From Acidobacteriota bacterium (GTDB lineage Bacteria > Bacteroidota > Ignavibacteria > UBA10030 > UBA8401), in the NCBI GenBank assembly GCA_050258555.1, contig JBLMZA010000046.1:7855-71854 (forward strand): a stretch of DNA of 64,000 nucleotides, read 5' to 3'. Position 1 is the first letter of the stretch. Every line of letters starts with the position of its first letter. Made by a program: the position numbers and the translations under genes. Positions 27,431 through 55,593 of the stretch are shown one piece after another. The notes beneath the pieces were generated by a model. It saw only the letters and a program-made list of their open reading frames with translations, was not told the DNA's origin and made no database searches.

Positions 27431-28801
<1,371 letters not shown>

Positions 28802-33142: not shown

Positions 33143-34957
33143 TTACGAATCTCCGCGCAACGCCCGTATCCTTCTTCGTGCCTCATCGATGAACAATGAA
33201 TTCGGATACTCCGCCAGAATTGCGCTGTAGGCCGCGATGGCATTCCCCTTGTCCTGCATCGAGTACTGGTAAATTTCGCCGATGCGGAACTGCGCCTTGT
33301 CGCGCTCCGTGCTTTTCGGAAACGCGCTCAAGAGTCCCTGCAGCGTCCGGAGCGCATCGACCGGACGCTTGATCTTCGTCTCGTATTCCGCCTTCTTCAG
33401 CATCGCATCATCGCACAGCGGCGCTTCACCCGACTGCAGGATCACGTCGTTGAGCACTGCGATCGCCTCGCTCAGTTTCCCCTGCCGCGCCAGAAATTCC
33501 GCGCGGGCGTACGACTCGAGGGCGCTTTCGAACGCGTCCTTGTTCTCGAGTATGAACGCCTGCAGAATGAGCGCATCGTTGGCTTCATCCGACTGCACGT
33601 TCGCCGTCAGTCCGGTGAGCATTGTGAGCGCCGAGTCGAACTTCGCCTGATAGAACAGCAGCTCGGCCATGCGATAGCGCGCATCGGAGCGCTGCTGATC
33701 CGATGACTGGGGCGACCCTGCAACGGCATCGTATTGCACACGCGCATCGTCTGTCTTTCCCTGCCGCAGATACACATCCCCCATGGCCGCGCGCACGACC
33801 GACAGCATCGGGCTGGCCGGTGCAATAACGGTGATGGAATCGTACGCTGCAAGGGCGCCGTTCAGGTCGCCCAGCCGTGATGCGCGGATGGTGCCGATCC
33901 GATAGAGCGCCTGCGCATGGATTTCAGACATCGGGTACTCGCGCGTGAGTGATTCATAGAGCGCCAGCACGGTCCGCACCGAGCCCTCGCGGCCGCCGGC
34001 TGAGTCGGCCTGCGCACTCAGTTCCTCCATGCAGCGCGCGTAGCCGAGTTTCGCCTGAGGCGCAAACGACGATTCCGATCCGGCATCGAGCGCCTTCCGA
34101 TAGGCTTTGGCCGCGGGACCATAGGCGTTCTCGCGGAAGACGCGCTCGGCGAACACGAAGAGCTCCGTTCCGCCGGAGTTGATGCGGTTCTCGATCGTTT
34201 CCGTCACGCCGAATGCCTCGTCGTACTGCTTCGCTTCCATCCACAGCCAGGCGAGCACGCGCAGAAATACGACGCTTTCCTTCCGGTCTTCGGCATACGC
34301 GCGCGCCGCATCGATGGCCGCCTGGAGTCCTTCGGGCCTGCCGGTCAGCGTGGAGAGCCGCGATTCGACGTAATCGAGCTGGAATTCATTCTGTTCGAGC
34401 ATGAGCAGGTATTCGTCCGCCGCGCCCCGGAAGTTCATCATCGTCGTAAAGAGCGAGGCAAGATCGTTGGCGAAGGCATACTTGTCTCCGAGCTCTGTGC
34501 GTCCGCGCTTTAAGGTCTGCACCGCCTTGTCGAGCATGCGCAGCTGCGCCTGTTCCGTGGCGACAAGCCGGTAGACGCCCGCGTTCTTCGGAGCGCTCTG
34601 CAGCACCGCGTTCCACATCGAATCGGCCTGCATGCTGCGGCCGGACATGGCATAAATTCCGGCCAGCGCCGTCTTGACATTGATGTCACCCGGCTGCGAT
34701 GCGAAGCGGGCCAGACAGAGCGCGATGGCTTCGTCGTATTTCTTGCGCTGCGTGTAGTTCCGCCGAAGGGCGTCGAAGTACACGAAATTGCCGGGATTGC
34801 TCCGGTTCAGCTGCTCGTAGAGCTGCCCGGCACGCTCGAGGTCGCCGCCCTGTTCGTAACTTTGCGCAAGCCGGAAAATATTCTGCTCGTCGGTTGTCTG
34901 CGCCTGCGCAAGGGCGAAGCATCCGGCAATGAGCACGAGAACGATCGTTTTCATCAT
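33143..34957 (-). CDS. Secreted multi-TPR repeat protein.
   Basis: The signal peptide is MMKTIVLVLIAGCFALAQAQ. It contains more than 10 TPR-like helical hairpins (for example AGQLYEQLNRSNPGNFVYFDALRRNY and ALYRIGTIRASRLGDLNGALAAYDSI). Confidence 0.65.
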   Translation of the reverse strand: MMKTIVLVLIAGCFALAQAQTTDEQNIFRLAQSYEQGGDLERAGQLYEQLNRSNPGNFVYFDALRRNYTQRKKYDEAIALCLARFASQPGDINVKTALAGIYAMSGRSMQADSMWNAVLQSAPKNAGVYRLVATEQAQLRMLDKAVQTLKRGRTELGDKYAFANDLASLFTTMMNFRGAADEYLLMLEQNEFQLDYVESRLSTLTGRPEGLQAAIDAARAYAEDRKESVVFLRVLAWLWMEAKQYDEAFGVTETIENRINSGGTELFVFAERVFRENAYGPAAKAYRKALDAGSESSFAPQAKLGYARCMEELSAQADSAGGREGSVRTVLALYESLTREYPMSEIHAQALYRIGTIRASRLGDLNGALAAYDSITVIAPASPMLSVVRAAMGDVYLRQGKTDDARVQYDAVAGSPQSSDQQRSDARYRMAELLFYQAKFDSALTMLTGLTANVQSDEANDALILQAFILENKDAFESALESYARAEFLARQGKLSEAIAVLNDVILQSGEAPLCDDAMLKKAEYETKIKRPVDALRTLQGLLSAFPKSTERDKAQFRIGEIYQYSMQDKGNAIAAYSAILAEYPNSLFIDEARRRIRALRGDS

Positions 34958-35081
34958 TCTTTAATATAGGAAGACTTCGCTGATGCTGCAACATCGGGAG
35001 CGCCATCGGCTTCCTTGCTTTCCTCTCAAGATTTCGCTAACTTTTGATAATGTACAATATATTTTTCGTTTCCCACTTCAG

Positions 35082-36251
35082 ATGACGACACCACGGCTTC
35101 AACATATCGCTATTCTCGGCTCTACCGGCTCGATCGGAACGAGCAGTCTCGATGTCATTGAGAATTTTCCCGAGGAATTCCGCGTCACCTATCTCACGGC
35201 CAATACGAACGTCGAGGCCCTGCTCGGGCAGGTCCGGCGCTTCCGGCCCCGGGGCGTCGTTGTGCTGGACCGCCTGGCGGCCGAACGCGTCCGCCGCGAG
35301 CTCAACGGCACCACGGAAGTGCTCTGCGGCGAGGAAGGCCTGTGCGAGATCGTCCAGCGCGACGACGTCGATACGGTCATCAGTTCGCTGGTCGGCTTTG
35401 CAGGACTCAAGCCGACGGTCAGGGCGATCGAGGCCGGAAAAAAAATCGCTCTGGCGAACAAGGAAACGCTCGTTGTGGCCGGCGAGATCATGATGGATCT
35501 TGTGCGGCGCCACGGCGTCGAATTGCTTCCGGTGGACAGCGAGCATTCGGCGATCTTTCAGTGCCTTGTCGGCGAATCGCGCAGCCAGGTGCAGAAGATC
35601 ATCCTCACCGCATCGGGCGGACCCTTCCGCACGAAGACCGCCGACGAGCTTCGGCATGTGAGCGTCGAACACGCGCTCAATCATCCGAATTGGAAGATGG
35701 GCAGCAAGATCACGATCGACTCGGCCTCGATGATGAACAAGGGTCTCGAAGTGATCGAAGCCCGGTGGCTGTTCGATGTTCCGGCCGAAAAAATCGAAGT
35801 GGTCGTTCATCCGCAGTCGATCATCCATTCGATGGTGGAATTCGTCGACGGTTCGGTCAAGGCGCAGCTAGGCGTTCCCGACATGAAGATACCGATCCAA
35901 TATGCGCTCACCTATCCGCGGCGCTCGCCTTCCGCATTCGGACGCGTGCGGTTTCCGGCGCTCGGCACAATGACGTTCTTCGAACCCGACACGGAGATCT
36001 TCCCCGCGCTCGGGCTGGCGTATCGGGCGCTCGAGGCAGCCGGCACGATGCCCGCCGCCATGAACGCCGCCAATGAAATCGCCGTCGCGTTGTTTCTTGC
36101 CGGAGGCATCCCGTTCGTCCAGATTCCCGAAATCATTGCCGATACCATGGCTCATCATACCAACACGCTTCATCCGACGCTCGACGATATTCGGGAAGCG
36201 GATGCATGGGCGCGGCGCTTCGCCGCCGAACTCGTACATGTGAAAGGATAA
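35082..36251 (+). CDS. dxr: 1-deoxy-D-xylulose-5-phosphate reductoisomerase.
   Basis: IAILGSTGSIGTSSLDVI is the NADPH-binding region. LANKETLV and DSEHSAIFQCL match DXR. The start is at MTTPRL. Confidence 0.9.
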   Translation: MTTPRLQHIAILGSTGSIGTSSLDVIENFPEEFRVTYLTANTNVEALLGQVRRFRPRGVVVLDRLAAERVRRELNGTTEVLCGEEGLCEIVQRDDVDTVISSLVGFAGLKPTVRAIEAGKKIALANKETLVVAGEIMMDLVRRHGVELLPVDSEHSAIFQCLVGESRSQVQKIILTASGGPFRTKTADELRHVSVEHALNHPNWKMGSKITIDSASMMNKGLEVIEARWLFDVPAEKIEVVVHPQSIIHSMVEFVDGSVKAQLGVPDMKIPIQYALTYPRRSPSAFGRVRFPALGTMTFFEPDTEIFPALGLAYRALEAAGTMPAAMNAANEIAVALFLAGGIPFVQIPEIIADTMAHHTNTLHPTLDDIREADAWARRFAAELVHVKG

Positions 36252-36254
36252 TTA

Positions 36255-37619
36255 ATGGAATTTCTCTCATCGGTCTTCTATTTTGTCATCGTCATCGGCG
36301 TGCTCGTCTTCATCCACGAGTTCGGTCATTTCATCGCCGCGAAGGCATCGGGCATGCGCGCCGAAGTCTTCGCCATCGGCATGGGCTACAGGCTCTTCGG
36401 CTGGAACCGCGTCAACGGCTTTTCGTTCTGGAAGCTCGACGAAACGATCGATCTGGGCAATCATACCGACTATCGCGTCGCCGCATTCCCCATCGGCGGC
36501 TATGTGAAGATCTCGGGCATGGTCGATGAAAGCATGGATACCGAGTTTGTAAACAAAGAACCTCAGCCCTGGGAGTTCCGCGCCAAACCTGTCTGGCAGC
36601 GAATGATTGTCATATGCGCCGGCGTTATAATGAATGTCGTGCTCGCGGGATTCATTTTTTGGTCGATAGCCTATATACAGGGCGATCGGCTCATGCAGAC
36701 GACCGAGATCGGGTATGTTGTTCCGAACAGCGCTGCGGCCAAGGCCGGACTCGAACAGGGCGACAAGGTCCTCGCCGTCAACGGCAAAAACGTGGACCAT
36801 TGGGAAGCCATCCTGCAGTCGATGTACCTCGATAATCTGGGCAAGGATCTCACGTTCGATATCGAACGCGCGGGCCGCACCTCGGAGCTTGTCGTACCGC
36901 GCGAGTCTCTTCCCGACATCCAGGATGCCTCGTTCGGCATCATCCCCACGCAGACCGAAGCGGTCGTCTCGGAAGTCATGAAGGGAAAGCCGGCCGAGAA
37001 AGCCGGACTGCAGAAAGGCGACGTCATTCTTGCGCTCAACGGCGAACGCGTCTTCAACGAGCAGCAGGTGATCCGCATCATCAAAGCGAACGCATCGAAG
37101 ACTGTCGCCATGCAGGTGAAGCGCAGCGCGGATTCGACGCTCCCGCTTTCGGTGACGCCGTCGGATGAAGGCCTGATCGGCATCGGCATCGGAGCGCGCT
37201 ATAACGGTCCGTGGCTCCACGTGAAATACGGATTCCTCGAATCATTCCCCAAGGGAATGAAGGAAACCGGCCGCATGGTGGTGCTGCATGTGCAGTTCTT
37301 CTATCAGCTGCTCACCGGGAAACAGTCGTTCTCGAAATCGGTCGGCGGTCCGGTCAAGATCGCGCAGATGGCCAATCGCAGCGCCGAAGTGGGATTGTTG
37401 AACTTCCTCGGATTCATGGGACTGCTGAGCGTGAGCCTTGCCGTGCTGAATATTCTTCCGCTGCCGGCGCTCGACGGCGGACATTTTCTTCTGCTTGCGA
37501 TCGAAGGGATCTTCCGCCGACCGGTGCCGACGAAAGTGCAGATGGTGATACAGCAGATCGGCGTCGTGCTGCTCATGGGCCTGATGGCATTCGTGCTGTT
37601 CAACGATATTTTCAGATAA
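36255..37619 (+). CDS. rseP: RIP metalloprotease RseP (site-2 protease, M50 family) with PDZ domains.
   Basis: HEFGHFIAA is the HExxH motif in TM1. Two PDZ-like segments are present. A C-terminal TM region with a metal-ligand Asp lies in LNILPLPALDGGH. It starts 4 nt after dxr. Confidence 0.9.
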   Translation: MEFLSSVFYFVIVIGVLVFIHEFGHFIAAKASGMRAEVFAIGMGYRLFGWNRVNGFSFWKLDETIDLGNHTDYRVAAFPIGGYVKISGMVDESMDTEFVNKEPQPWEFRAKPVWQRMIVICAGVIMNVVLAGFIFWSIAYIQGDRLMQTTEIGYVVPNSAAAKAGLEQGDKVLAVNGKNVDHWEAILQSMYLDNLGKDLTFDIERAGRTSELVVPRESLPDIQDASFGIIPTQTEAVVSEVMKGKPAEKAGLQKGDVILALNGERVFNEQQVIRIIKANASKTVAMQVKRSADSTLPLSVTPSDEGLIGIGIGARYNGPWLHVKYGFLESFPKGMKETGRMVVLHVQFFYQLLTGKQSFSKSVGGPVKIAQMANRSAEVGLLNFLGFMGLLSVSLAVLNILPLPALDGGHFLLLAIEGIFRRPVPTKVQMVIQQIGVVLLMGLMAFVLFNDIFR

Positions 37620-37682
37620 GCGGCGGGGGGCATGCAGCGCGGAACATTTCCAGATTAACTTTTACTGTGGAGCGTTCTTCTC

Positions 37683-38855
37683 ATGTCGAACAAATTATCG
37701 GTTGTCTTCCGGCTGGCACTCGCGGCTTCCGCCCTTGTCTTCACGACGCTTCGCGCTCAGACGCTTCCCCTTCGGGTCAATGTCACAATGACCGAGGCCG
37801 AGATCATCAATGCCGGCCCGCTCTTCGACATCATGGCGGACCGGATCAAGCCTCTCGACCGTTCCACATTCAGCGTCGATTTTCAGAATACCACACCCGA
37901 TCGTCAGCCTGTCTGGGCCCGGATGCATATCGAAGCCTGGGTCACGCTCGATGAGGATCATGAGCGGCTGCAGATTTTCACTTCCGACACCAGAACGCCC
38001 TTTCTCATCCCGCCGGAAGGCCGCACGTTTCTCGCAAGCGACAGCTGGGACGACAACAGCGGCGACATGCAGTTCATGTCGGTGAAGAACGACGCCTCGT
38101 TCAACCGCGTGAAGGATAAGGTGACCGACCCGGCCGGCGGCGGCCGCGTTCCCTCGGGAACGTACGAAGTTGCCGTCACGCTGACCGTGGTCAAAATCGG
38201 CAGCGAAACGGTCATGCTCGATATTCCGGTGCATGTTCCGCCGGTCGTCGTCACCAATCCCTCGAACGCGACATTGAATCTTCCTTTTGCCGACGGACAC
38301 CGCTACGCCTCGACATTCCCCCAGTTCCAGTGGGTCACCGACATGCGCCGGGTCCGGCTTTCGGTCTATGAAAAGCGGCCCGAGCATCAGTCGAATGAAG
38401 ATGCCGTCCAGGCATCCGATCCGTTCCTTGAAGTGGTGATCGACCGCCGCGCATCCGGCGGCACGGCGCAATTCACGTACCCCCAGAGTTCCTCGTCGGC
38501 GCCGGGCATCGAGATCGTCCGCGGCCCGCGCCCGCTCGAACGAGGCAAGACCTATGTCGTCGAATTCGAAGGGCTGGTCTCGACCATCGCCGCCGAGATC
38601 GAGCCGCATCGCACGATCCGCTCGTTCTCGATCGACGATCCGGCATCGCTCGCGCAGCAGGAAGAATTCCGCCGGGTCATCAACTCCCTTCCCGCGCTGC
38701 AGGAGGCGCTGCAGAGCGGCAGCATCGACATGAATGATTTCCAGATCAATCAGAACGGCATTTCGCTGAACGGCCGCGCGATGACGCTGCAGGAACTTCA
38801 GGAGTATCTCAGCCGCAACAACGGAAAACACTACACCATACAGATCATCGATTAA
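37683..38855 (+). CDS. Hypothetical secreted/periplasmic protein. It is the first gene of the FecR-barrel-CHASE2 operon.
   Basis: The signal peptide is MSNKLSVVFRLALAASALVFTTLRAQ. There is no recognisable motif. Composition is normal, and the antisense shadow ORF is Arg/Asp-rich. Confidence 0.4.
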   Translation: MSNKLSVVFRLALAASALVFTTLRAQTLPLRVNVTMTEAEIINAGPLFDIMADRIKPLDRSTFSVDFQNTTPDRQPVWARMHIEAWVTLDEDHERLQIFTSDTRTPFLIPPEGRTFLASDSWDDNSGDMQFMSVKNDASFNRVKDKVTDPAGGGRVPSGTYEVAVTLTVVKIGSETVMLDIPVHVPPVVVTNPSNATLNLPFADGHRYASTFPQFQWVTDMRRVRLSVYEKRPEHQSNEDAVQASDPFLEVVIDRRASGGTAQFTYPQSSSSAPGIEIVRGPRPLERGKTYVVEFEGLVSTIAAEIEPHRTIRSFSIDDPASLAQQEEFRRVINSLPALQEALQSGSIDMNDFQINQNGISLNGRAMTLQELQEYLSRNNGKHYTIQIID

Positions 38856-38871
38856 CGCGGAACCAACCATC

Positions 38872-39651
38872 ATGCTTCGATCTCTCATCGTCACTGCATG
38901 CATCGCCTGCAGCGGCTCTCTTCTGCATGCGGCGGGGAACGGCCCCGTTGCCGCCATGCACAAACCAGTCGGCACTGTCGACTGCAGCATCGACGGAACA
39001 TGGAAGAAAGCCGTTCCCGCAATGCCTCTCTACTCGGGCAATATCGTGCGGACGCAGGAGAACTCGTTTGCCATCGTCAAGTTTCTCGAAAACTCCATCA
39101 TACGCGTTCAGGAAAAGTCGGAGGTGGAAATCCGCGGCACAAAGACCGACGACAAGGAATTCTCGAAGAACGTGCATCTGCGCACGGGCACGGTGGGCTT
39201 CAATGTGAAGAAGCGCCCGAATGAAAAGTTTGAATTCTCCACCCCCACATCGGTGGCATCGATCCGCGGCACCGAAGGCGCGCTCATGTCGGGATCGGAC
39301 AGCACCGACCTGCTTGTGCTGCAGTCCGGATCGGTGCTCTTCACGAACAATTTTTCGAATCAGTCCGTCACGGTCAACGGCGGCCAGACCGGGCATTCCC
39401 GGTCGAACGGCCAGATCGATGTCCGTCCGTCGTCATCCGACGACATCAACCGCATGCACCGCGTGCAGCAGCTCGGCGGAACGAACGGCACAGGCGGAGG
39501 CGGAACCGATTCGACCGGAGCCAATGGAACGCCGGGCGGCGCCGGCACCGGCCAGGGACAGCAGCAGGGATCGCAGCAGAACGAGGAGATCCGCATACAG
39601 GTCACCGACCCGAGCGGCAATCATAAAACCATGATCATCAAACCCGAATAA
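38872..39651 (+). CDS. FecR-domain lipoprotein (LipL45-like) with a Gly/Gln-rich C-terminal tail.
   Basis: The probable lipobox is IVTAC. The core reads ...IVRTQENSFAIVKFLENSIIRVQEKSEVEI...GTVGFNVKK..KFEFSTPTSVASIRGTEGALMSGSDSTDLLVLQSGSVLF, matching the FecR sensor-domain pattern. The low-complexity tail is GGTNGTGGGGTDSTGANGTPGGAGTGQGQQQG. Confidence 0.55.
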   Translation: MLRSLIVTACIACSGSLLHAAGNGPVAAMHKPVGTVDCSIDGTWKKAVPAMPLYSGNIVRTQENSFAIVKFLENSIIRVQEKSEVEIRGTKTDDKEFSKNVHLRTGTVGFNVKKRPNEKFEFSTPTSVASIRGTEGALMSGSDSTDLLVLQSGSVLFTNNFSNQSVTVNGGQTGHSRSNGQIDVRPSSSDDINRMHRVQQLGGTNGTGGGGTDSTGANGTPGGAGTGQGQQQGSQQNEEIRIQVTDPSGNHKTMIIKPE

Positions 39652-39661
39652 CGGCACGACG

Positions 39662-42028
39662 TTGACTCTTTCCAGAATCAGTACCCCCGCTCTCTTTGCC
39701 GGTGTTCTTCTGATCGCACTGAACACGGCAGCCGCTCTGGCGCAGCCTGGAACATACATTCAATCGGTGAAGCCGCAGTCGGCATCCGAAGGCGAGCCGC
39801 TGACGATTTCCGTTTCGCTGGCGCAGACATCATCGCTCAGCCGCGTGATGCTCTTTTACCGGCAGCTGGGCGCAAGCGACTTCCGCAGCGCCGAGATGCA
39901 GATCGCGCGCGACTCGGCCTCCGCAGAAATCCCGGCGTCGGAGATCGCACCTCCCTTCGTCGAATTCTATCTCGTTGCCGAAACGCAGACCGGCGTGCGC
40001 GAGACGTACCCGCTTTCCTCTCCGCAGACGACGCCGGCGCGCGTGACGATCCTTCCCCGCTCCGCTCAGACATCGGATGTGCTCATCCTGAGTCCCGAGA
40101 CGGATGCACCCGTTGCGCCGGATGAACTTTACATCTCTCTGTCGTTCGTCTATGCCGGCAGCGAGATCGCGATCGAAAAAACGAAAATCTTTCTCAACTC
40201 CGTCGACCTGTCGCCGAACGCCGTCGCCGCGGGCGATCTTCTGCTTGTGTCGCCCGAAGCGATCCCGGACCAGATGAAGTCGGGCGGATCGAAGCGGCTC
40301 CGCATCGAGCTCTATGACGCCAAAGGCGCGCTCATCCGCACCATCAACCGCACGATCACCGTCGCAGGAGCCGCGATGGCAGAGTCCGGGCCGGAATTCC
40401 TCTTCAACGGCAGCGGACAGACCGAATCGCGCTCTGAAAGCATCAAGGGCGCATCGAAGACATACAACCGCTTCGATGTGCGCGCCAATGCGCAGTACGG
40501 CATCCTGAAAACGACGGCGAACCTCCAGCTCACCAGCGAAGAGAAGCCGGAAAATCAGCCGCAGAACCGCTACTATGTCGGATTCGACGCGAAATATCTG
40601 AAGCTCGGTTTCGGCGACACCTATCCGCAGTTTCCCACGGCGCTCATGGACGGCCGCAGGGTGCGCGGCGTCTCGGCCGAAGCCTCGTACGGCATCCTCC
40701 GCCTGGCCGCCGCAAGCGGCGAGATCGTTCGGGGCGTCGACTACGGCGGCCAGACGCTCTCGAACCGCCGCACGCTGACGGTGGTGCGTCCCAGCTTCGG
40801 CAAGGGCGACCGGTTCCAGTGGGGCTTCACCTACCTTCATTCGAAGGATGGATGGAATGCAGGCTCTTCGAAGAAGCCGCAGGAAAACGTCGTTGCCGGC
40901 ACCGACCTGCTTGTGGCGCTCGACGACCGCCGCATCGAATGGAAGACGCAGGCATCGATGAGCATCAACAATCTCGACATCTCGTCTCCCGAATTCACGC
41001 GCGACAGCATCGATGCGGCCGTGGCGCGCGGCACGCTCAGCTCGAGCGAGGGCGACGATCTCAAAAAGCTTCTTCCGCTTGCGTCGAAATTCATCACGTT
41101 CAACGAGAACATCACGCCTCTCAATCCGACCGGACTCTCGTCGCTCGCCTTCGAGACGGCGCTCTCATTGAATTACTTCAACAACTACCTCCGCGGCTCG
41201 TACCTCTATCACGGCAGCGAGTATATGTCGTTCGGCACCGCGTCCTTCCGGCGCGACGTGCAGGGCTACAACATCACGGACCGGCTTCGCCTTCTGGGCA
41301 ATTCGCTCTTCGTCACCGGCAGCTTCGAACAGCTCGGCAACAACGTCACGAAATACGATCCGGTGACCACCACATGGACCACGGCGACGGCGTCGGTTTC
41401 GTATTTCGCCGCCGGACGCATTCCCGACATCACGCTCGGCATCTCCTCGTCGGGCATTTCGAACGACAATCTTCCCGTCGACTCGCTGCGCTCCGCGCTC
41501 CTGCCGCAGATCGATTATGCCACGACGCGCGTCTTTCTCCAGTCCACCTACTCCTTCGCATGGATGGGACAGCATCTGGCGCTGCTGAGCGTCGATTATT
41601 CCGGCGCCGACGATAAAAGCGTGCGCAATCAGGATATCACCGGATTCAACGGCATGCTCTTCGTCACGACCGAGCATACGAAGGCGCTGGAAAGCACCAT
41701 CGGACTGACGACAAGCCTGAACACGCTTCCTGCAAACGATACCGGCGCCGTTTCGCCGGCATCCACGACGATGAACTATTCCACGCTGACGCTCGGCGCA
41801 GGCTATCGCTTCCTCGAAGACAGAATGAAGGCGACCGTTTCGCTTGCGCCCACATTCGGCAACTACAGGCGCACGCAGATGGAAGCGGGAGTTCAATATG
41901 CGCTCTTTGCCCGCCACACGATCGCGGCGCAGTACCGGTACATCGTCAATTCATCGCTTCAGCCGACGCCTCTCATGCCCAGGACGGACGATTCGGCCTT
42001 TACGATCTCATACCGCATGAACTTCTGA
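39662..42028 (+). CDS. Large (788 aa) putative outer-membrane beta-barrel protein of unknown family, with an N-terminal beta-sandwich-like domain.
   Basis: It has a signal peptide (LFAGVLLIALNTAAALAQ), an N-terminal domain of about 200 aa, and then many amphipathic beta-strand segments. The terminal residue is aromatic (...AFTISYRMNF). It starts 11 nt after the FecR gene. Confidence 0.5.
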   Translation: MTLSRISTPALFAGVLLIALNTAAALAQPGTYIQSVKPQSASEGEPLTISVSLAQTSSLSRVMLFYRQLGASDFRSAEMQIARDSASAEIPASEIAPPFVEFYLVAETQTGVRETYPLSSPQTTPARVTILPRSAQTSDVLILSPETDAPVAPDELYISLSFVYAGSEIAIEKTKIFLNSVDLSPNAVAAGDLLLVSPEAIPDQMKSGGSKRLRIELYDAKGALIRTINRTITVAGAAMAESGPEFLFNGSGQTESRSESIKGASKTYNRFDVRANAQYGILKTTANLQLTSEEKPENQPQNRYYVGFDAKYLKLGFGDTYPQFPTALMDGRRVRGVSAEASYGILRLAAASGEIVRGVDYGGQTLSNRRTLTVVRPSFGKGDRFQWGFTYLHSKDGWNAGSSKKPQENVVAGTDLLVALDDRRIEWKTQASMSINNLDISSPEFTRDSIDAAVARGTLSSSEGDDLKKLLPLASKFITFNENITPLNPTGLSSLAFETALSLNYFNNYLRGSYLYHGSEYMSFGTASFRRDVQGYNITDRLRLLGNSLFVTGSFEQLGNNVTKYDPVTTTWTTATASVSYFAAGRIPDITLGISSSGISNDNLPVDSLRSALLPQIDYATTRVFLQSTYSFAWMGQHLALLSVDYSGADDKSVRNQDITGFNGMLFVTTEHTKALESTIGLTTSLNTLPANDTGAVSPASTTMNYSTLTLGAGYRFLEDRMKATVSLAPTFGNYRRTQMEAGVQYALFARHTIAAQYRYIVNSSLQPTPLMPRTDDSAFTISYRMNF

Positions 42029-42035
42029 TACTCCT

Positions 42036-44237
42036 ATGGCCGGCACGCGCCCGAAAAAATCAGAACTGATGCCGCATCTGCTTTTGGCAGCCGCCGCTTC
42101 GGCATTCGTGATCCTCTTTGTGCAGGACGTATTCGGCGTGTTCCATTTCTTCGACCGCATCTCGCTCTCGGCGGTCGATACGATGTTCAGGCGCCGCGGG
42201 CCGGCGGGACGCCCGGCCGATTCGCTCGACGTCGTCATCGTGAAGATCTCCGACCGGACGGAGCAGTCGCTTCCCGAGCATTTTCCCTTTCCGCGCAGCT
42301 ACTATGCCCGCGCCATCCGGAACCTGAACAGAGCCGGCGCGCGCGCGATCGGCATCGATCTCATCTTCGAGCAGCCCGATGCCCACGGAAGCAGCCATGA
42401 CGCGGAGCTCTTTGCGGCGATACGCGAGGCGCGCAACGTCGTCGTTGCCGCCCGCACAGACATCCGGTCCGATGACGTGTCCGTCACGCGCGCCGACGAG
42501 AACTATCATTCGATATTTTTCACTGCCGACAGCAGCGCCGGCAGCGTCTATGTACCCAACGACGAAGACGGCATTTACCGGCGCTACATGCCCTGCGCTG
42601 CATCGCCGGGCAGCGGCGCGCTCATCCCCTCATTCGCCTTCAGCGTGCTCAATAAATACCGCGGCCTCCCTTCGATGACCGTTATTGCATCCGCACCGGG
42701 AGGCTTCGACTATCAGGGACGGCGCATTCCCGGCGCCGACGATGCGTCGATGCTCATCAATTATTACGGAGTCGCTGGGAAGACATTCCGCGAGCTGGAC
42801 TTTGCCGACATCATCGACGACGCCTCGTTCGAGACGAACGAAGAGCGCGAACTGCATGAATCGATCAACACGTTCGATGACCCCGCCTACGGCATTCTCT
42901 CCGACGGATCGCTCAGGGGAAAGATCGTTCTTATCGGTCCGTCTTTCGCCGAGTCGAAGGATCTCGTTCCCGTTCCCATGGCGCCGGCCGACGCTCCGTC
43001 GCACAACCTGATGTACGGCGTGGAGCTTCATGCGAACGTGCTGCAGATGCTGCTGGATGAAAATTATCTGCGCACGGTGCCGCCGCTTGCTGCATCGGCT
43101 CTCTGTGCGCTGCTGGTCTTCATGCTCATGCCCGTCATCACTCTGATCAAGCAGCAGGCCACGCGCTCCGCGCGCATCAATGAACTGCTTGCCGGTTCCT
43201 TTTCCGGCATGCTCATCTATGCCATATTGGCCGGGGCTTCCTACTGCTTCAGCGCGTTCAATACCGTCATCCCCGTGGTTTCACTGGCTTCATCGGTCAT
43301 CACCGCCTACATCGTCATTTCGGTCTATCACTATCTCGGCGAGCGCAGGCAGAAGGCGATGATCCAGAAAATGTTCACGCATTACCTCAGTCCCCGCATC
43401 GTCGATGAGCTCATTGCGCATCCTGAAAAGCTCCGTCTTGGCGGAGAACGCAAGGAGCTGACCGTGATGTTCGCCGATGTCGGCGGATTCACGAGCCTGT
43501 CCGAGCGCGTCGAGCCCGAAACGATCATCGGCCTGCTCAATGAATATCTGGGCGCGATGAGCGACATCATTCTTGCCCACAACGGCACGCTGGACAAGTA
43601 CGAGGGCGATGCAATCATGGCGTTCTGGGGAGCGCCGCTCGAACTCGAGAACGCGCCGCTCGATGCGTGCCGCGCCGCGCTGGCCATGCAGAAGAAGGTG
43701 GAAGAGATACGCGCCCGATGGCGCGCCGAAGGAAAGCCGGAGTTCTCGATCCGCATCGGCATCAACACCGGCGAGATGATCGTGGGCAATATGGGAAGCG
43801 CCGCGAGATTCGACTACACGGTCATCGGCGACTCCGTCAACATCGCCTCGCGTCTTGAAGGCGCGAACAAGGCCTACGGCACGACGATCATGATCAGCGG
43901 ACGCACCGCTTCCTTCGTCGCGCATGAACTCCTGTGCAGGGAACTGGATGATCTGATGGTGGTGGGCCGCTCGAAGCCGATCAGGGTGTATGAGCCGCTC
44001 GGAGAAATCGGAATGGTTTCCGCCTCTCCCTTCTTTGCCGCGCTCGAACATCATGCGCGCGGACTCGAGCTCTACCGGAGCCGGCACTTCGCCGATGCGC
44101 TGGTTTCATTCAGGAATGTCCTCGATATCGCTCCGAACGACGGTCCGGCCAATATCTACATCAAGCGCACCGAGCGGTATCTGATGGAAGCTCCGCCCGA
44201 GGAATGGACGGGCGTCCATTCCCTTCAGTCGAAATAA
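42036..44237 (+). CDS. CHASE2 periplasmic-sensor class III adenylate/guanylate cyclase with a C-terminal TPR-like tail.
   Basis: The CHASE2 N-terminus reads FFDRISLSAVDTMFRRRGP...VVIVKISDRTEQSL...ARAIRNLNRAGARAIGIDLIFEQPD. Three TM helices follow. The cyclase core is ELTVMFADVGGFTSLSE...GDAIMAFWGAP...IGINTGEMIVGNMGS..RFDYTVIGDSVNIASRLE. It starts 8 nt after the barrel gene. Confidence 0.85.
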   Translation: MAGTRPKKSELMPHLLLAAAASAFVILFVQDVFGVFHFFDRISLSAVDTMFRRRGPAGRPADSLDVVIVKISDRTEQSLPEHFPFPRSYYARAIRNLNRAGARAIGIDLIFEQPDAHGSSHDAELFAAIREARNVVVAARTDIRSDDVSVTRADENYHSIFFTADSSAGSVYVPNDEDGIYRRYMPCAASPGSGALIPSFAFSVLNKYRGLPSMTVIASAPGGFDYQGRRIPGADDASMLINYYGVAGKTFRELDFADIIDDASFETNEERELHESINTFDDPAYGILSDGSLRGKIVLIGPSFAESKDLVPVPMAPADAPSHNLMYGVELHANVLQMLLDENYLRTVPPLAASALCALLVFMLMPVITLIKQQATRSARINELLAGSFSGMLIYAILAGASYCFSAFNTVIPVVSLASSVITAYIVISVYHYLGERRQKAMIQKMFTHYLSPRIVDELIAHPEKLRLGGERKELTVMFADVGGFTSLSERVEPETIIGLLNEYLGAMSDIILAHNGTLDKYEGDAIMAFWGAPLELENAPLDACRAALAMQKKVEEIRARWRAEGKPEFSIRIGINTGEMIVGNMGSAARFDYTVIGDSVNIASRLEGANKAYGTTIMISGRTASFVAHELLCRELDDLMVVGRSKPIRVYEPLGEIGMVSASPFFAALEHHARGLELYRSRHFADALVSFRNVLDIAPNDGPANIYIKRTERYLMEAPPEEWTGVHSLQSK

Positions 44238-44266
44238 TGATCTCTGCGCCGCTGTGTCCTGGCGCG

Positions 44267-45319
44267 TCAGCGGTGGAATTTGTCTTCCTGCAGCGTGATG
44301 CGGAGCGAAATGCGGTGCGTGTTGCCGAGCTGATCGTTCGCATCGAACTTCGCGAACGAATAATCGATGTCGAGCTTCCGGAGGTGGATGCCTGCACCGA
44401 CGGTGACGCTGCCGACGTCGTTGTATCCGCCGCGCAGCGCGAACACGTTCTTGTATTCATATTCGAGACCGAAAACGGGATCGAAGCTCACGGGACCGAG
44501 ATTGACGCGCGACGAGAAGCGCCGGTTCTCGAACCGCACATCCGCTCCGAAGGCCGGAGTGAACGTGCCGCCCAGCGCATCGAGCCGGTATGCCGCGCCG
44601 AGCTTCACCGTCGGCGAGATGAGCTCGTTCGTGCCGGTCGACCATGCCACAAGCGTCGTGGTCACGTCCTGCACGTTGGCGCCGAGCAGCAGGCGCTCTG
44701 TGGGAAGATACATCACGCCGGCATCGAAGCCGACGCCCGTGCCGTGAAACTCGCCGATATTGCGGCGGATGAGTTTCAGGTTCACGCCGTAGTACAGTTG
44801 TTCGGAAAATTGCTTGGCGTAGGTCAGGTACAGCGCGTAGTCGGCCGCATTGAAGAATGAAATCTTGCTGTAGTCGGGACGCGTGCCCGCGCCGTCATCG
44901 AAAATGCCGTTGCCGTTGATGTCGTTCCAGGCGCGCCGCGTGTCGGCGATGCCGTCGATGCCGAGGCGCACCAGACTGATGCCGATGGATGAGGCGCGAT
45001 AGTCGACGATGCCGGTTTCCGCATTCACGGTGTTGGCTCCGAACGGAAGCGCCACGGCCGCATAATCGTAATTGACAAGATTGCCGTAGCGCTCGTCGTG
45101 CATCAGTGCGATCTCCGGATACATGATGCGCGCGAGTCCCGCCGGATTCCAATATCCCGCAGTCACGTCGCCGGCAAGTGCGGCATAGGCGCTGCCCATG
45201 CCGAGGGCGCGGCCGCCCACGCCGATGGCCATGAATTCGCCGGCGTACTTGCCGATCGACACGCCGGCCGAACACACTGATGCGCTGAACAGGAGCGCTG
45301 CAAACAGGAGTTTTTTCAT
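44267..45319 (-). CDS. FadL-superfamily outer-membrane barrel resembling T9SS PorV/PorQ-type proteins.
   Basis: The signal peptide is MKKLLFAALLFSASVCSA. AIGVGGRALGMGSAYAALAGDVTAGYWNPAGLARI is a FadL/PorV-like N-terminal motif. It is about 350 aa. The family assignment is tentative. Confidence 0.45.
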   Translation of the reverse strand: MKKLLFAALLFSASVCSAGVSIGKYAGEFMAIGVGGRALGMGSAYAALAGDVTAGYWNPAGLARIMYPEIALMHDERYGNLVNYDYAAVALPFGANTVNAETGIVDYRASSIGISLVRLGIDGIADTRRAWNDINGNGIFDDGAGTRPDYSKISFFNAADYALYLTYAKQFSEQLYYGVNLKLIRRNIGEFHGTGVGFDAGVMYLPTERLLLGANVQDVTTTLVAWSTGTNELISPTVKLGAAYRLDALGGTFTPAFGADVRFENRRFSSRVNLGPVSFDPVFGLEYEYKNVFALRGGYNDVGSVTVGAGIHLRKLDIDYSFAKFDANDQLGNTHRISLRITLQEDKFHR

Positions 45320-45456
45320 ATGCACCTCATAGGTAAAAAATAGAAAAAAAGATCGAAAAAACAAATACGTACGCATTCCTCTCTTGTGTTTGTCCTTAAT
45401 TTTCTACACATTTTCGCATATTCAGTCTTCCCTCATTCTAGTCCAATGATGTTATT

Positions 45457-45645
45457 ATGAATGCGATGGAAAAACATTCATCACGGTTTTACGATCTCCG
45501 CTTCGGCATTCTGATCGCCATTATCATCATGATCCTGCTGTTCAAGCTCTTCGGCAGCCAGTCGTCGAGTTCCGTCCCCCCTGCTTCCTCCGCTCCGGCG
45601 CCTGCGCAGCATGCAGGCTCCGACACGCTTTCTCTTCTCCGCTGA
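45457..45645 (+). CDS. Possible small single-TM protein (62 aa) in an AT-rich divergent promoter region.
   Basis: The hydrophobic helix FGILIAIIIMILLFKLF is followed by a Ser/Pro/Ala-rich tail. It may be non-coding. Confidence 0.2.
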   Translation: MNAMEKHSSRFYDLRFGILIAIIIMILLFKLFGSQSSSSVPPASSAPAPAQHAGSDTLSLLR

Positions 45646-45768
45646 AAATAATTTTTCCCCCGTGCACGTTTTTTTTGAATCCCCGCAACTTTTTGACGCA
45701 TCCCATTGTTAGAACTGCACACGCAGTACGCTGCCAACATCAATTATTTTCCCGGTCATCCTCAATCT

Positions 45769-46752
45769 ATGTACGACATCCTTATTATCGGCGCCGGTCC
45801 CGCCGGCATCAGCATGGCGGTTGAAGCCCGTCAGGCGGGCATCGATCCGGCCAACATCCTCATCATTGAAAAGGCGCACGAACATTCTTTTTCGATCAGG
45901 AAATATTATCCGGAAAACAAGCTCGTCACCGCGCGCTATAAAGGCGTGGATGCCGAATGCACCGGCGTGATGTGCATCCCCGACTTGTCGAAGCGCGACA
46001 CGGTCTCCTATCTCGACAAAGCCATCACCGACCATGCGATCCGCGTGCAGTATTCCGAGACGGTCGAATCGATACGGCGCCGTTCGGACGACACGCATTT
46101 CGTCGTCACATCGGATAAAGGCGTGTATCATTCGCGCTTCGTCATCATCGCCATCGGCATTCTGGGAAAGCCAAACAAACCCGACTACCGCCTTCCTCTT
46201 TCCCTGAAATCGAGGATCCTCTTCGATATGACCACCGCGCCCGTGATCAATTCGGATGTGCTCGTGGTGGGAGGCGGCGACTCTGCATCGGAATACTGCC
46301 AGTACCTTGTGCAGCAGGGCAACCGCGTCACGCTCAGCTACCGCCGCAGCGAATTCACGCGCATGAACCGGATCAACGCCGAAAGTCTGCTTGCCCTCGC
46401 CAACCGCGGCCTCGTCGAGATCCAGTATGAATCGAATATCGTGTCGGTCACCGATGCGGGCGGCAGGCCCGAAGTCCGATATCAGGAAGAGCGCTCCGCT
46501 CCGCGCACGTTCGACTGGATCGTCTATGCGCTCGGCGGAACGACGCCGAAGAATTTCCTGAAGACGATCGGCATCGAGTTCATCGGCGACGGGCCGCACA
46601 TTGCCGACGGATTCGAGACGAACATTCCCGGCATGTTTCTGATCGGCGACTTGAGCGCCGGCGTGCAGGGCGGATCGATCATCTGGGCATTCAATACGGC
46701 GAACTCCGCCATGCGCAAGATCTGCAGCCAGTATCTCCGCTGTGCAGTCTAA
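45769..46752 (+). CDS. FAD/NAD(P)-binding pyridine nucleotide-disulfide oxidoreductase (thioredoxin-reductase-like, YpdA-like).
   Basis: The FAD GxGxxG is MYDILIIGAGPAGIS. The second (NADPH) Rossmann is VLVVGGGDSASE. The C-terminus GDLSAGVQGGSII is TrxR-like. Confidence 0.7.
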   Translation: MYDILIIGAGPAGISMAVEARQAGIDPANILIIEKAHEHSFSIRKYYPENKLVTARYKGVDAECTGVMCIPDLSKRDTVSYLDKAITDHAIRVQYSETVESIRRRSDDTHFVVTSDKGVYHSRFVIIAIGILGKPNKPDYRLPLSLKSRILFDMTTAPVINSDVLVVGGGDSASEYCQYLVQQGNRVTLSYRRSEFTRMNRINAESLLALANRGLVEIQYESNIVSVTDAGGRPEVRYQEERSAPRTFDWIVYALGGTTPKNFLKTIGIEFIGDGPHIADGFETNIPGMFLIGDLSAGVQGGSIIWAFNTANSAMRKICSQYLRCAV

Positions 46753-48857: not shown

Positions 48858-48863
48858 GCATGA

Positions 48864-49454
48864 ATGATGACAGACCTGAGACGCCAAATTGCGTTGATCC
48901 TTGTGTGCGCGATGCTTCAGTGCAGCGTGCCGGGACTGCTCCGCGCGCAGACAATGGACGTACCGGCAGATATACAGGTCCGTCTCTTTTCGAAGCTCCT
49001 CGCATACGAGCGCAATCTGTCCCTGCGCTCGGGAACGCGTCTCGCCATCGGCATTCTCTACCAACGCTCGTTCAAGGGTTCATCGGTCGCCAAGGACGAT
49101 ATCATGAAGGCCCTTTCCTCATCGGTCTCGACGATTGGCGGCATTCCCTTCCGCATCGTCCCGATCGAGCTCGATGATGCCGCCGACGTCGCCTCCGAAT
49201 TGCGCGATCATGGCATCGGGCTTGCCTATGTCGCGCCGCTGCGCGCATACGATCTCTCGGCGATTCTGGAAGCATCGAGAAAAGGGAAAATCCTGACGCT
49301 CACCGGCGTGAGCACGTACTCCGATCAGGGCGTCTCGGTTGCCATCGGCATGATGAACGAGCATCCCCAGATCCTCATCAATCTTTCTTCGGCAAAGGCG
49401 GAAGGGGCCGACTTCAACTCTCATTTTCTGAAACTCGTGAGGATCGTCCAATGA
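48864..49454 (+). CDS. Periplasmic DUF4154 / YfiR-like protein.
   Basis: It has a signal peptide and is about 170 aa mature. LAIGILYQRS...FRIVPIE...GLAYVAPL...ILTLTG is the typical YfiR-family pattern. It sits between the TonB receptor and the histidine kinase. Confidence 0.5.
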   Translation: MMTDLRRQIALILVCAMLQCSVPGLLRAQTMDVPADIQVRLFSKLLAYERNLSLRSGTRLAIGILYQRSFKGSSVAKDDIMKALSSSVSTIGGIPFRIVPIELDDAADVASELRDHGIGLAYVAPLRAYDLSAILEASRKGKILTLTGVSTYSDQGVSVAIGMMNEHPQILINLSSAKAEGADFNSHFLKLVRIVQ

Positions 49455-51585: not shown

Positions 51586-51768
51586 TTTCGCCTATATATC
51601 TCATAGAACCCCATCCGCACCTGCGTGATTCCAGCCGACGGCGCAAAAACGAGACCCGTACGCAGGAAATTTTTTGAAAAATCGGAGATTCTGCGGTTGA
51701 CTTTGCGTCAAAAAAGCGCTATCTTTTTATATAGTTTTTGATACAGCGGTTCTGAAATACCCTATACT

Positions 51769-51840
51769 GCCCCGTGGTGTAACTGGCAACACGTCTGACT
51801 CTGGATCAGAAGAGTTCAGGTTCGACCCCTGACGGGGCAG
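51769..51840 (+). tRNA. tRNA-Gln (anticodon CTG).
   Basis: A manual cloverleaf gives an acceptor stem TGCCCCG/CGGGGCA with a U1:A72 pair and G73, a D-stem GTGT/ACAC, an anticodon stem TCTGA/TCAGA with loop CTCTGGA, and a T-arm TCAGG-TTCGACC-CCTGA. CCA is not encoded. Confidence 0.8.
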
Positions 51841-55511: not shown

Positions 55512-55593
55512 GCCGAAATGGTGGAATTGGCAGACACACCAGCCTTAGGAGCTGGCGCCGCGAGGCATGGGGGTTCGAGTCCCCCTTTCGGCA
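55512..55593 (+). tRNA. tRNA-Leu (anticodon TAG), type II with a long variable arm.
   Basis: The acceptor stem is GCCGAAA/TTTCGGC with discriminator A. The anticodon stem is CCAGC/GCTGG with loop CTTAGGA. The variable arm is CGCCGCGAGGCATG. The T-arm is GGGGG-TTCGAGT-CCCCC. Confidence 0.85.

Follow-up and report, generated by a model that had tools for sequence, protein, structure and literature searches.

A conserved four-gene cassette of Ignavibacteria as a putative envelope signalling module ending in predicted cAMP synthesis

In the closest known system, the plant-signal to cAMP relay of S. meliloti, the gene of the outer-membrane barrel protein NsrA lies directly 5' of that of the cyclase CyaK. 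CyaK, CyaD1 and CyaD2, all of them CHASE2 cyclases, require NsrA for their signal-dependent activation, and hence for cAMP synthesis (PMC7529298, PMC13001267, PMC9927233); the signal that NsrA answers is an external protein (PMC7529298). NsrA, ~1,200 aa long, begins with a FecR domain, continues with TPRs and ends in a barrel (aa 600-1200); barrels of the NsrA family match the TonB-receptor barrel model PF00593.

Gene clusters that combine FecR and CHASE2 domains have also been published. They include a cAMP cluster of Campylobacterota with FecR and CHASE2-cyclase genes (PMC9239204), a cluster of mtxA and a CHASE2 cyclase gene in magnetotactic bacteria (PMC4439547), and the "BiofilmReg" operon of Burkholderia, encoding a LysM-FecR protein and a CHASE2 histidine kinase, with the PA4035-type in Pseudomonas (PMC5192318). 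An earlier note had proposed that the locus described here would be a hitherto unreported path by which events at the outer membrane lead to cAMP or cGMP. This cannot be maintained, since NsrA-CyaK has already been shown experimentally and FecR/CHASE2 clusters are in print; the general idea is known, and what is new is the split form and its barrel.

Organization and conservation of the locus

The window, a 64,000-nucleotide stretch of DNA, contains four genes encoded head to tail on the plus strand. These specify a secreted two-β-sandwich protein of 390 aa to which no function is assigned (gene 1, 37683-38855), a soluble periplasmic FecR-domain protein of 259 aa (gene 2, 38872-39651), an outer-membrane barrel protein of 788 aa with a TTG start (gene 3, 39662-42028), and a 733 aa inner-membrane CHASE2 cyclase, predicted to be a class IIIb adenylate cyclase (gene 4, 42036-44237). 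They follow rseP (36255-37619), encoding the RseP site-2 protease (TIGR00054, 343 bits, cut-off 147.55), on the same strand. The spacers from rseP through to gene 4 are 63, 16, 10 and 7 nt; the four reading frames reported earlier stand, but the gaps of 64, 17, 11 and 8 given with them were coordinate differences, each one too high. Upstream of rseP, and separated from it by 3 nt, is dxr (about 35082-36251), and the domain calls for both genes are unambiguous (Pfam/NCBIfam). On the other side a convergent minus-strand gene, most likely 44267-45319, encodes a PorV/PorQ-family outer-membrane protein (type IX secretion-associated), its stop codon lying 29 nt from that of the cyclase gene. The product scores 119.1 bits with NCBIfam NF033709 (PorV_fam, cut-off 90) and 209.7 with the PorV2 model, under the cut-off of 325; its previous label, "FadL/PorV-like," is acceptable, as the PorV/PorQ family is FadL-like.

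Gene neighbourhoods were counted in 80 species-representative genomes, at loci with enough flank. The cyclase gene lies immediately 3' of the barrel gene in 72/72 loci and the FecR gene 5' of it in 70/72, the two loci without FecR being L042 and L043. Upstream of the FecR gene, a homologous gene for a protein of 350-420 aa keeps its position in 68 of 74 loci (hhalign E = 8e-39). The cassette is retained in L001 despite different flanks, and in other phyla at the KSB1 loci L087 and L088, as well as at L090. At distant loci the cyclase gene adjoins that of the barrel in three of five; a Fidelibacterota genome (L086) has the unknown, FecR and barrel genes without a neighbouring cyclase, and in L089 the barrel is accompanied only by a small TPR protein, with no cyclase beside it. 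Because of these two loci, and of L042 and L043, the barrel may have a function of its own. The four-gene arrangement is real and beyond chance, and the genes are a true cassette, strongly conserved together and jointly inherited, so that the conservation in related genomes on which the earlier proposal depended is borne out.

The flanking genes behave differently. rseP and dxr adjoin the cassette in 34 of 54 loci and are missing in 20, rseP being absent at L001, where LptF/LptG genes adjoin the cassette, and at loci of the Melioribacteraceae/Ignavibacteriaceae type. A PorV-like gene is present in 35/61 loci, and rseP beside the cassette always comes with it (both in 28 loci, neither in 19). 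Together, rseP/dxr and the PorV-like gene are merely one of two alternative genomic contexts, and their products are neighbours of the module rather than components of it. The description "co-transcribed downstream of rseP" is correct as to position in the window, but does not hold as a general trait.

Domain composition of the encoded proteins

The three non-cyclase proteins each carry a signal peptide and no further hydrophobic segment. In the 390 aa protein the signal peptide (aa 1-25) is followed by Gln26, which is invariant and lies after the predicted cleavage site, by two β-sandwich domains and by a small C-terminal helical/β domain; no match was found in Pfam or NCBIfam. The second protein contains the FecR domain (PF04773, E = 2.9e-11) at aa 59-151 (nt 39046-39324), then a linker rich in Gly, Thr and Gln and, at the C-terminus, a short β segment. 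It also matches the MtxA N-terminal model DUF7354/MtxA_N (E = 1.5e-5) and over 140 aa is 29% identical to the corresponding FecR region in S. meliloti NsrA (E = 6e-11), while its scores with the Lsa33 (48.8, cut-off 420) and LipL45 (29.3, cut-off 350) models are far under threshold. Neither a transmembrane part nor an anti-sigma domain was found. Its former designation as a lipoprotein is unsupported: the protein starts with a short signal peptide, and in 75 FecR orthologs the Cys is not conserved as a lipobox.

The 788 aa protein is modelled as two periplasmic Ig-like domains followed by a 26-strand β-barrel. After the signal peptide (aa 1-27) and an invariant Gln28, the Ig-like domains occupy aa 33-131 (nt 39758-40054) and aa 141-234 (nt 40082-40363), and the modelled barrel aa 246-787 (nt 40397-42022). 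The topology is typical of the outer membrane, including a C-terminal aromatic/hydrophobic β-signal. One outward loop, of 57 aa (aa 438-494), is helical; the outward loops are short and not variable but conserved, and L2 and L3 are the most conserved loops. Twenty-six strands make a larger barrel than a pure receptor needs, which counts against the signalling function preferred below.

The barrel family comprises 2,077 clusters, with sampled members from Ignavibacteria, KSB1 and Fidelibacterota, and the 788 aa protein matches no Pfam, NCBIfam or PDB family, in agreement with the earlier impression that it belongs to none that is recognised. Even with the threshold relaxed to E <= 1, models of POTRA, Bac_surface_Ag, OstA and LptD matched none of the 36 + 10 members searched, and the structure comparison (Foldseek) agrees that the protein is not BamA, TamA or LptD. 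Plug, signalling-extension and TonB-receptor barrel (PF00593) domains are not matched by the family either. The nearest fold and top Foldseek match is MtrB (E = 1.7e-8, TM 0.40/0.47), and PapC/FimD rank high in both structure searches; against every translocon, the TM-score is < 0.5 and sequence identity is 8-12%. No homology to the NsrA barrel was detected (hhalign probability <= 0.2%).

The cyclase has a first transmembrane segment at aa ~11-33 and three more hydrophobic segments at aa 353-428. Its periplasmic CHASE2 domain (aa 32-364, nt 42129-43127; PF05226, E = 7e-49) is followed by the cyclase domain (aa 473-647, nt 43452-43976; PF00211, Guanylate_cyc, E = 1.1e-23) and a C-terminal TPR (aa 669-702, nt 44040-44141; TPR_2, E = 0.002). 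The best solved relative is CyaB of P. aeruginosa (3r5g, E = 3e-45), and identity to S. meliloti CyaK is 30.8% across 80% of the length. An alignment confirms the presence of the six class III catalytic residues (D481, K521, D525, T595, N602 and R606), which are invariant in 77/77 orthologs. Judged by its residues, the enzyme is a catalytically intact member of the ATP-specific class IIIb. Because the substrate pair is Lys/Thr, the predicted product is cAMP; cGMP, the other output considered previously, is unlikely.

Possible functions of the cassette

On balance, the cassette is probably a conserved envelope signalling module of FCB-group bacteria that ends in cAMP synthesis, a split, non-orthologous counterpart of NsrA-CyaK. 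The barrel would report what happens at or within the outer membrane, whether a ligand at the surface or a state of the membrane itself. Its Ig-like domains and the FecR-domain protein, possibly with the 390 aa protein, would form the link across the periplasm to the CHASE2 domain, where binding or release would switch the cytoplasmic cyclase dimer. The cAMP would then act on effectors encoded elsewhere; neither a cAMP effector nor a phosphodiesterase is encoded near the cassette. We infer the direction of signalling, the physical contacts and the signal itself.

A different and less likely function is that the barrel, FecR-domain protein and 390 aa protein constitute a translocon or an assembly apparatus that serves a protein, a polymer or a structure of the surface. 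The barrel would be a sheath or pore like MtrB, LptD and the pilus ushers, and the cyclase would only regulate or monitor it, rather than being an outside-in end point. With 26 strands the barrel is in the size class of MtrB and LptD (26) and ushers (24); its nearest folds are those of MtrB and ushers, and L2 and L3 could line a lumen. The trio without an adjacent cyclase in L086 and the lone barrel in L089 also fit, and the Leptospira FecR-domain relatives Lsa33, LipL45 and Lsa19 are annotated as surface adhesins. However, the low TM-scores and identities extend to every translocon, genes for a cargo, an ATPase or polymer synthesis are not conserved beside the cassette, and the cyclase adjoins in all 72 Ignavibacteria-type loci and most of the distant ones; NsrA, the characterised relative of this architecture, is a signalling component. 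Less probable again is a variant of the signalling module in which outer-membrane biogenesis or damage is reported, as by RcsF and outer-membrane proteins in enterobacteria, with no external ligand and cAMP as a stress output. Short conserved outward loops, unlike those of a ligand-diversifying receptor, would suit such a sensor, as would retention of the cassette in every sampled family locus and the envelope genes beside it in more than half of the loci (rseP, porV-like; LptF/LptG in L001). But the flanks vary by lineage, so this adjacency is not conserved, no Rcs family is among the Pfam/NCBIfam matches, and the NsrA precedent answers an external protein signal (PMC7529298).

The earlier note had drawn an analogy with classical FecA-FecR-type cell-surface signalling processed by RseP, the cyclase replacing the sigma factor. 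A FecR domain is present, and rseP precedes the cassette by 63 nt in the same orientation, but the FecR protein has a signal peptide only; lacking a transmembrane helix and a cytoplasmic anti-sigma domain, it offers an intramembrane protease no site to cleave. The barrel is without Plug, signalling-extension or TonB-receptor barrel domains; no ECF sigma factor was found in the window region, as that note had already observed, or in related loci; and rseP, absent from 20/54 loci, goes with dxr, the housekeeping gene that usually accompanies it. Such signalling is very improbable, and the literal FecA-FecR/RseP pathway is for practical purposes refuted by these FecR, barrel, sigma and rseP features. 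In many proteobacteria bamA comes next after rseP, and the 788 aa protein might be a divergent housekeeping BamA/TamA or LptD whose adjacency to a cyclase is incidental; LptD likewise has 26 strands and an N-terminal β-rich domain, and lptF/lptG adjoin the cassette in L001. Set against the failure of the POTRA, Bac_surface_Ag, OstA and LptD models and the linkage to FecR and CHASE2 cyclase genes kept across phyla, this proposal is hardly credible.

Comparison with described systems

MtrB (the 26-strand sheath of MtrCAB), LptD and chaperone-usher pores resemble the cassette barrel in being very large, with about 24-26 strands. However, they differ in structure (TM 0.3-0.47), show 8-12% identity, belong to no common sequence family and have other N-terminal domains, and the cassette has no cytochrome, Lpt or pilus genes nearby. 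FecA-FecR-FecI shares the envelope-spanning logic of an outer-membrane barrel, a periplasmic FecR domain and an inner-membrane transducer, and rseP happens to be adjacent in the window. By contrast, the cassette is without TonB-dependent transducer features, an anti-sigma/transmembrane part and an ECF sigma factor, its output is a nucleotide cyclase, and the rseP linkage is not conserved.

The FecR/CHASE2 gene pairs, known from gene neighbourhoods only (PMC9239204, PMC4439547, PMC5192318), likewise place a secreted FecR-domain protein beside a membrane receptor whose CHASE2 sensor lies in the periplasm. They come with other partners (phosphodiesterase and TPR protein, LysM, response regulator and kinase), and the separate 26-strand barrel gene and the 390 aa gene of the cassette are undescribed in them.

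In NsrA-CyaK, as in the cassette, the coding sequence for a barrel and a FecR domain stands directly 5' of the gene for an inner-membrane adenylate cyclase of class III with a CHASE2 domain; both systems do without an ECF sigma factor and yield cAMP (predicted for the cassette). The FecR domain and the cyclase are homologous between the two; the barrels are not detectably so, and the analogy therefore rests on architecture and two of three parts. NsrA unites FecR domain, TPRs and barrel in a single polypeptide, whereas the cassette encodes FecR protein and barrel separately and adds the conserved 390 aa gene. As periplasmic spacer NsrA has TPRs and the cassette the Ig-like pair on the barrel, and only the NsrA barrel matches PF00593. 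The hosts also differ, being Alphaproteobacteria for NsrA and FCB-group bacteria for the cassette.

Organisation of the locus

The cassette comprises four plus-strand genes. They encode a 390 aa protein (gene 1, 37683-38855, taken from the ORF table and lacking a Pfam or NCBIfam match), a 259 aa FecR-domain protein (gene 2, 38872-39651; Pfam FecR, E = 2.9e-11), a 788 aa barrel (gene 3, 39662-42028, with a TTG start) and a 733 aa cyclase with a CHASE2 domain (gene 4, 42036-44237). Upstream on the same strand lie dxr (longest ORF 34983-36251, start probably near 35082) and rseP (36255-37619), both assigned unambiguously by Pfam/NCBIfam. The ORF coordinates of the earlier note are reproduced exactly, and its gaps of 64, 17, 11 and 8 nt are in reality spacers of 63, 16, 10 and 7 nt, preceded by 3 nt between dxr and rseP. 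On the other side, a convergent minus-strand gene (44267-45319 as the best reading of its ORF) ends with its stop codon 29 nt from that of the cyclase. It had been described as FadL/PorV-like, and its score of 119.1 bits against NF033709 (PorV_fam, cut-off 90) confirms it as a member of the PorV/PorQ family; with the narrower PorV2 model it scores 209.7, under the cut-off of 325.

Promoter and terminator consensus scans of 34800-45800 gave counts equal to those in shuffled sequence and are thus uninformative; Bacteroidota-type promoters fall outside the consensus of the scan. Rfam matches in the whole window are restricted to two tRNA genes, at 51768-51840 (+) and 55512-55593 (+), with none in or near the cassette.

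A sigma-54-dependent response regulator (27431-28801, minus strand; Response_reg, Sigma54_activat and HTH_8) shows no visible link to the cassette. A 695 aa outer-membrane protein (31053-33140, +) combines a TonB-receptor Plug with a Porin_10-type C-terminus, without the usual TonB_dep_Rec barrel match, and adjoins a gene for a 604 aa TPR protein (33143-34957, -). Not far downstream of the cassette, 46926-51061 (+) may hold a second trans-envelope signalling trio, composed of a TonB-dependent receptor (Plug and TonB_dep_Rec barrel, 46839/46926-48857), a DUF4154 (YfiR-like) protein (about 48867-49454) and a HAMP histidine kinase (49451-51061), whose gene overlaps the preceding one by 4 nt.

Predicted products of the cassette

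The cyclase contains a CHASE2 domain (E = 7e-49), a class III catalytic domain (Guanylate_cyc, E = 1.1e-23) and a cytoplasmic C-terminal TPR (aa 669-702, nt 44040-44141). The CHASE2 domain lies between hydrophobic stretches (about aa 11-33 and aa 353-428) and is thereby placed in the periplasm. Aligned to solved cyclases, the catalytic domain has its nearest relative in P. aeruginosa CyaB (3r5g, E = 3e-45). D481, D525, K521, T595, N602 and R606 are present, each invariant in 77/77 orthologs; we take D481/D525 to bind metal, K521/T595 to select the substrate and N602/R606 to stabilise the transition state, as in class III enzymes. ATP-specific cyclases of class IIIb are marked by a Lys/Thr substrate pair, so that the enzyme is predicted to be intact and of the ATP type, with cAMP as the expected product. 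Of the two products proposed earlier, cAMP is thus retained and cGMP, with guanylate cyclase activity, is rejected; the metal-binding Asp residues and the substrate pair whose confirmation the earlier note had called for are all in place. To our knowledge CHASE2, a widespread bacterial sensor domain, has no known ligand, and the sole functional clue to it is NsrA-CyaK, an outer-membrane signal-to-cAMP relay of one rhizobial species. TPR modules recur near CHASE2 cyclases: at the C-terminus of the window's enzyme, in a 594 aa protein encoded downstream in a KSB1 locus (L087, 6340-8124), inside NsrA, and in a TPR protein of a Campylobacterota cluster.

Full-length homologs of the 788 aa protein number more than 200, none of them with a name. 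Modelled by AlphaFold2 with 36 homologs (pLDDT 78.3), it consists of a signal peptide, a pair of beta-sandwich domains (aa 33-131 and 141-234) and a barrel (aa 246-787) with 26 strands by DSSP. The turns that face inward are short, with 42 residues altogether, and the longer loops on the outer side add up to 170, one of them having 57 residues and two helices. In 36/36 family members the chain ends in F, L, I or Y, the pattern of a beta-signal. Given this standard outer-membrane topology, the two Ig-like domains would lie in the periplasm; a diverse profile relates the first to the Ig-like domain of P. gingivalis peptidylarginine deiminase (E = 1.6e-7). Pfam and NCBIfam return no match for the query, for 36 family members at E <= 1 or for the 10 longest distant members, and these 10 carry no FecR or TPR fusions. 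Among PDB structures, the top Foldseek match is MtrB, also of 26 strands, but its TM-scores reach only 0.40/0.47.

An exhaustive profile search returned 2,077 representative clusters at 50% identity (538 at E <= 1e-30), mostly of 780-930 aa, and the named distant members belong to candidate division KSB1 and Fidelibacterota. The cassette draws attention to a large outer-membrane family of about 26 strands with two N-terminal Ig-like domains and no Pfam/NCBIfam model.

The sole hydrophobic segment of the FecR protein is an N-terminal signal peptide; it has neither a transmembrane helix nor an anti-sigma domain, the latter as had been noted. Its weak matches to DUF7354/MtxA_N, Lsa33 and LipL45 are far under the family cut-offs (in NCBIfam, Lsa33 48.8 versus 420 and LipL45 29.3 versus 350). 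Across 75 orthologs most N-termini look like signal peptidase I sites, often reading AQKKK, and the Cys found at position 10 or 13 shows no conservation as a lipobox. For this reason the protein is more likely to be soluble in the periplasm than to be the LipL45-like lipoprotein suggested before, and a lipoprotein anchor is rejected. A literature search for LipL45 together with CHASE2 found nothing. The FecR partners fall into two size classes, about 230-260 aa (for example window, L004-L006, L049-L082) and about 360 aa (for example L002, L007-L041), the longer with an extra C-terminal region; outlying sizes are 659 aa in L046 and 525 aa in L086.

An invariant Gln directly follows the predicted cleavage site of the barrel (Q28, 39743-39745) and of the 390 aa protein (Q26, 37758-37760). 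In Bacteroidetes, secreted proteins typically start with Gln after cleavage (the "Q-rule", giving an N-terminal pyroglutamate), and these two residues and many of the AQKKK N-termini are consistent with that rule.

Conservation across genomes

A homolog scan at one genome per species identified 187 carriers of the barrel, and the best 80 of these 187 were fetched, all of them Ignavibacteria or Bacteroidota-type MAGs. Neighbours were counted by tblastn mapping of the window's proteins, with loci having enough flank as denominators. The cyclase follows the barrel immediately and on the same strand in 72/72 loci and the FecR gene precedes it in 70/72, and chance adjacency is rejected. In 68/74 loci the FecR gene is immediately preceded by an ORF of 350-420 aa. 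In divergent loci, where this ORF has passed out of BLAST range of the window's 390 aa protein, single-sequence hhalign gave no signal, but profile-profile comparison showed homology (probability 100%, E = 8e-39). Kept in position and homologous by profile, this ORF makes the cassette one of four genes throughout, in agreement with the co-conservation that the earlier note had proposed to check. In L042 and L043, from Ignavibacteriota/Bacteroidota genomes, barrel and cyclase occur without FecR, and opposite-strand transporter genes stand upstream in its place.

The flanking genes behave differently. rseP and dxr lie upstream in only 34/54 loci, so that rseP adjacency, on which the earlier note had remarked, is no fixed feature of the module, and the PorV-like gene lies downstream in 35/61. 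In L004-L083, rseP is never seen without the PorV-like gene or the reverse, both being present in 28 loci and neither in 19, which indicates that the cassette occupies two alternative settings and has moved as a unit. These two genes are one of its genomic settings and not components of it. In L001, where barrel identity is 36%, the cassette sits between unrelated genes.

Five distant neighbourhoods of the barrel family were also read. FecR, barrel and CHASE2 cyclase are together in three (L087, L088 and L090), L088 also having the upstream gene of unknown function. The Fidelibacterota locus L086 (7001-9781) holds the upstream gene, FecR and barrel without an adjacent cyclase, and in L089 (7001-9730) the only companion of the barrel is a small TPR protein. 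The cassette is real, ancient and uncharacterised.

The source MAG is labelled "Acidobacteriota bacterium" at NCBI (locus tags ACM3Q4_04670 and ACM3Q4_04680). The window also encodes PorV/PorQ (type IX secretion), a YpdA-like bacillithiol reductase and proteins with Gln after the signal peptide. Because of these, and because the relatives of the cassette are all Ignavibacteria or Bacteroidota-type, the label is probably wrong.

Signalling and its relation to known systems

What is established for the cassette is its gene order, its co-inheritance, where each product is predicted to reside, and that the cyclase is intact and of the ATP type. From these we infer a relay in which the barrel would register something at the outer membrane, and CHASE2 would be contacted by the FecR protein and by the Ig-like domains that the barrel carries in the periplasm, perhaps also by the 390 aa protein. 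This contact would switch cAMP synthesis. The cAMP effectors would be encoded elsewhere in the genome; none is found within the window. As a variant of the same relay, the system may sense envelope integrity.

In the main rival reading, the 26-strand barrel would serve as a translocon or sheath, with a function of its own that the cyclase merely monitors. The size of the barrel points in this direction, as do its nearest folds, MtrB and ushers, and the loci L086 and L089, which are without cyclase. A housekeeping barrel, by contrast, is rejected: the protein shows neither the POTRA domains and 16-strand Bac_surface_Ag barrel that would make it BamA/TamA (Omp85) nor the OstA/LptD domain pair that would make it LptD, and its TM-score to LptD is <= 0.24, removing an identity that the earlier note had regarded as fatal to its proposal. 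We consider it unlikely that the FecR and CHASE2 domains are an ancient periplasmic coupler, portable between systems and set independently on unrelated barrels: in Alphaproteobacteria on a TonB-receptor-like one that is fused to FecR, in the FCB group on a separate, oversized one of 26 strands that sheathes a partner protein. The FecR protein or the 390 aa protein would then be threaded through the FCB barrel to the surface, much as MtrB sheathes MtrA and LptD sheathes LptE, and a continuous protein link would run from the cell surface to the cyclase.

The proposed relay from barrel to cyclase is not the FecA-FecR-FecI system either. In a literal FecA-FecR-RseP pathway the FecR protein would be an RseP-processed anti-sigma factor, and this logic fails on the tested features. 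Plug, STN and TonB_dep_Rec are absent from the 788 aa protein and its family (Pfam), and the FecR protein, with a signal peptide only, lacks the anti-sigma domain and transmembrane helix of an RseP substrate. No ECF sigma factor gene was found among the neighbours in the window, as already reported, or in related loci.

The closest known counterpart is found in Sinorhizobium meliloti, where the CHASE2 cyclases CyaK, CyaD1 and CyaD2 make cAMP upon a plant or protein signal and require NsrA for signal-dependent activation (PMC7529298, PMC13001267, PMC9927233). The architecture of NsrA was rebuilt from the pSymB locus sequence and later papers. Immediately ahead of the CHASE2 cyclase lies a gene for a protein of up to 1,209 aa, in which FecR occupies aa 85-179, TPRs span about aa 440-606 and the C-terminal part is long; other pSymB records name the pair "FecR domain-containing protein | cyaK" or "TonB-dependent receptor". 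FecR and CHASE2 are associated in other bacteria too: in magnetotactic bacteria a CHASE2 cyclase comes after mtxA (PMC4439547), in Burkholderia and Pseudomonas a CHASE2 histidine kinase is the partner of a LysM-FecR protein (PMC5192318), and Campylobacterota have a FecR and CHASE2-cyclase cluster including a TPR protein (PMC9239204). In view of these reports, and of the experimental backing of NsrA-CyaK, an outer-membrane-to-cAMP route via FecR and CHASE2 is already described and not new, contrary to what had been proposed for this locus.

Both systems join, in an inner-membrane receptor, a periplasmic CHASE2 domain to a cytoplasmic class III cyclase (30.8% identity to CyaK over 80% of the query, tblastn), place FecR upstream of the cyclase (29% over 140 aa between the FecR domains, E = 6e-11) and have an outer-membrane barrel directly upstream, in the window 7 nt before the cyclase. 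However, NsrA unites FecR, TPR and barrel in one polypeptide, whereas the window has separate genes, secreted components without TPR, two Ig-like domains as the periplasmic extension of the barrel, and a fourth conserved gene. NsrA-family barrels score 33-52 bits on PF00593 (cut-off 27), whereas 0/36 members of the window's family match at E <= 1, and hhalign of the two barrels was negative with a single NsrA sequence and with a 53-sequence profile, against close and diverse family alignments, the profile-profile probabilities of 0.05-0.2% showing no relationship. Judged from sequence, the cassette thus lacks two defining features of NsrA, the single polypeptide and the homologous barrel.

FecR, barrel and CHASE2 cyclase are nevertheless strictly kept together in a distant superphylum, with the parts separate and the barrel non-homologous, which suggests that FecR-to-CHASE2 coupling is a general path for outer-membrane information to second-messenger synthesis. 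The split system is also simpler to dissect, since each partner can be deleted, tagged and co-folded separately. On the architecture and the two homologous parts, FecR and cyclase, that are common to both, the cassette would work like NsrA-CyaK without belonging to that family.
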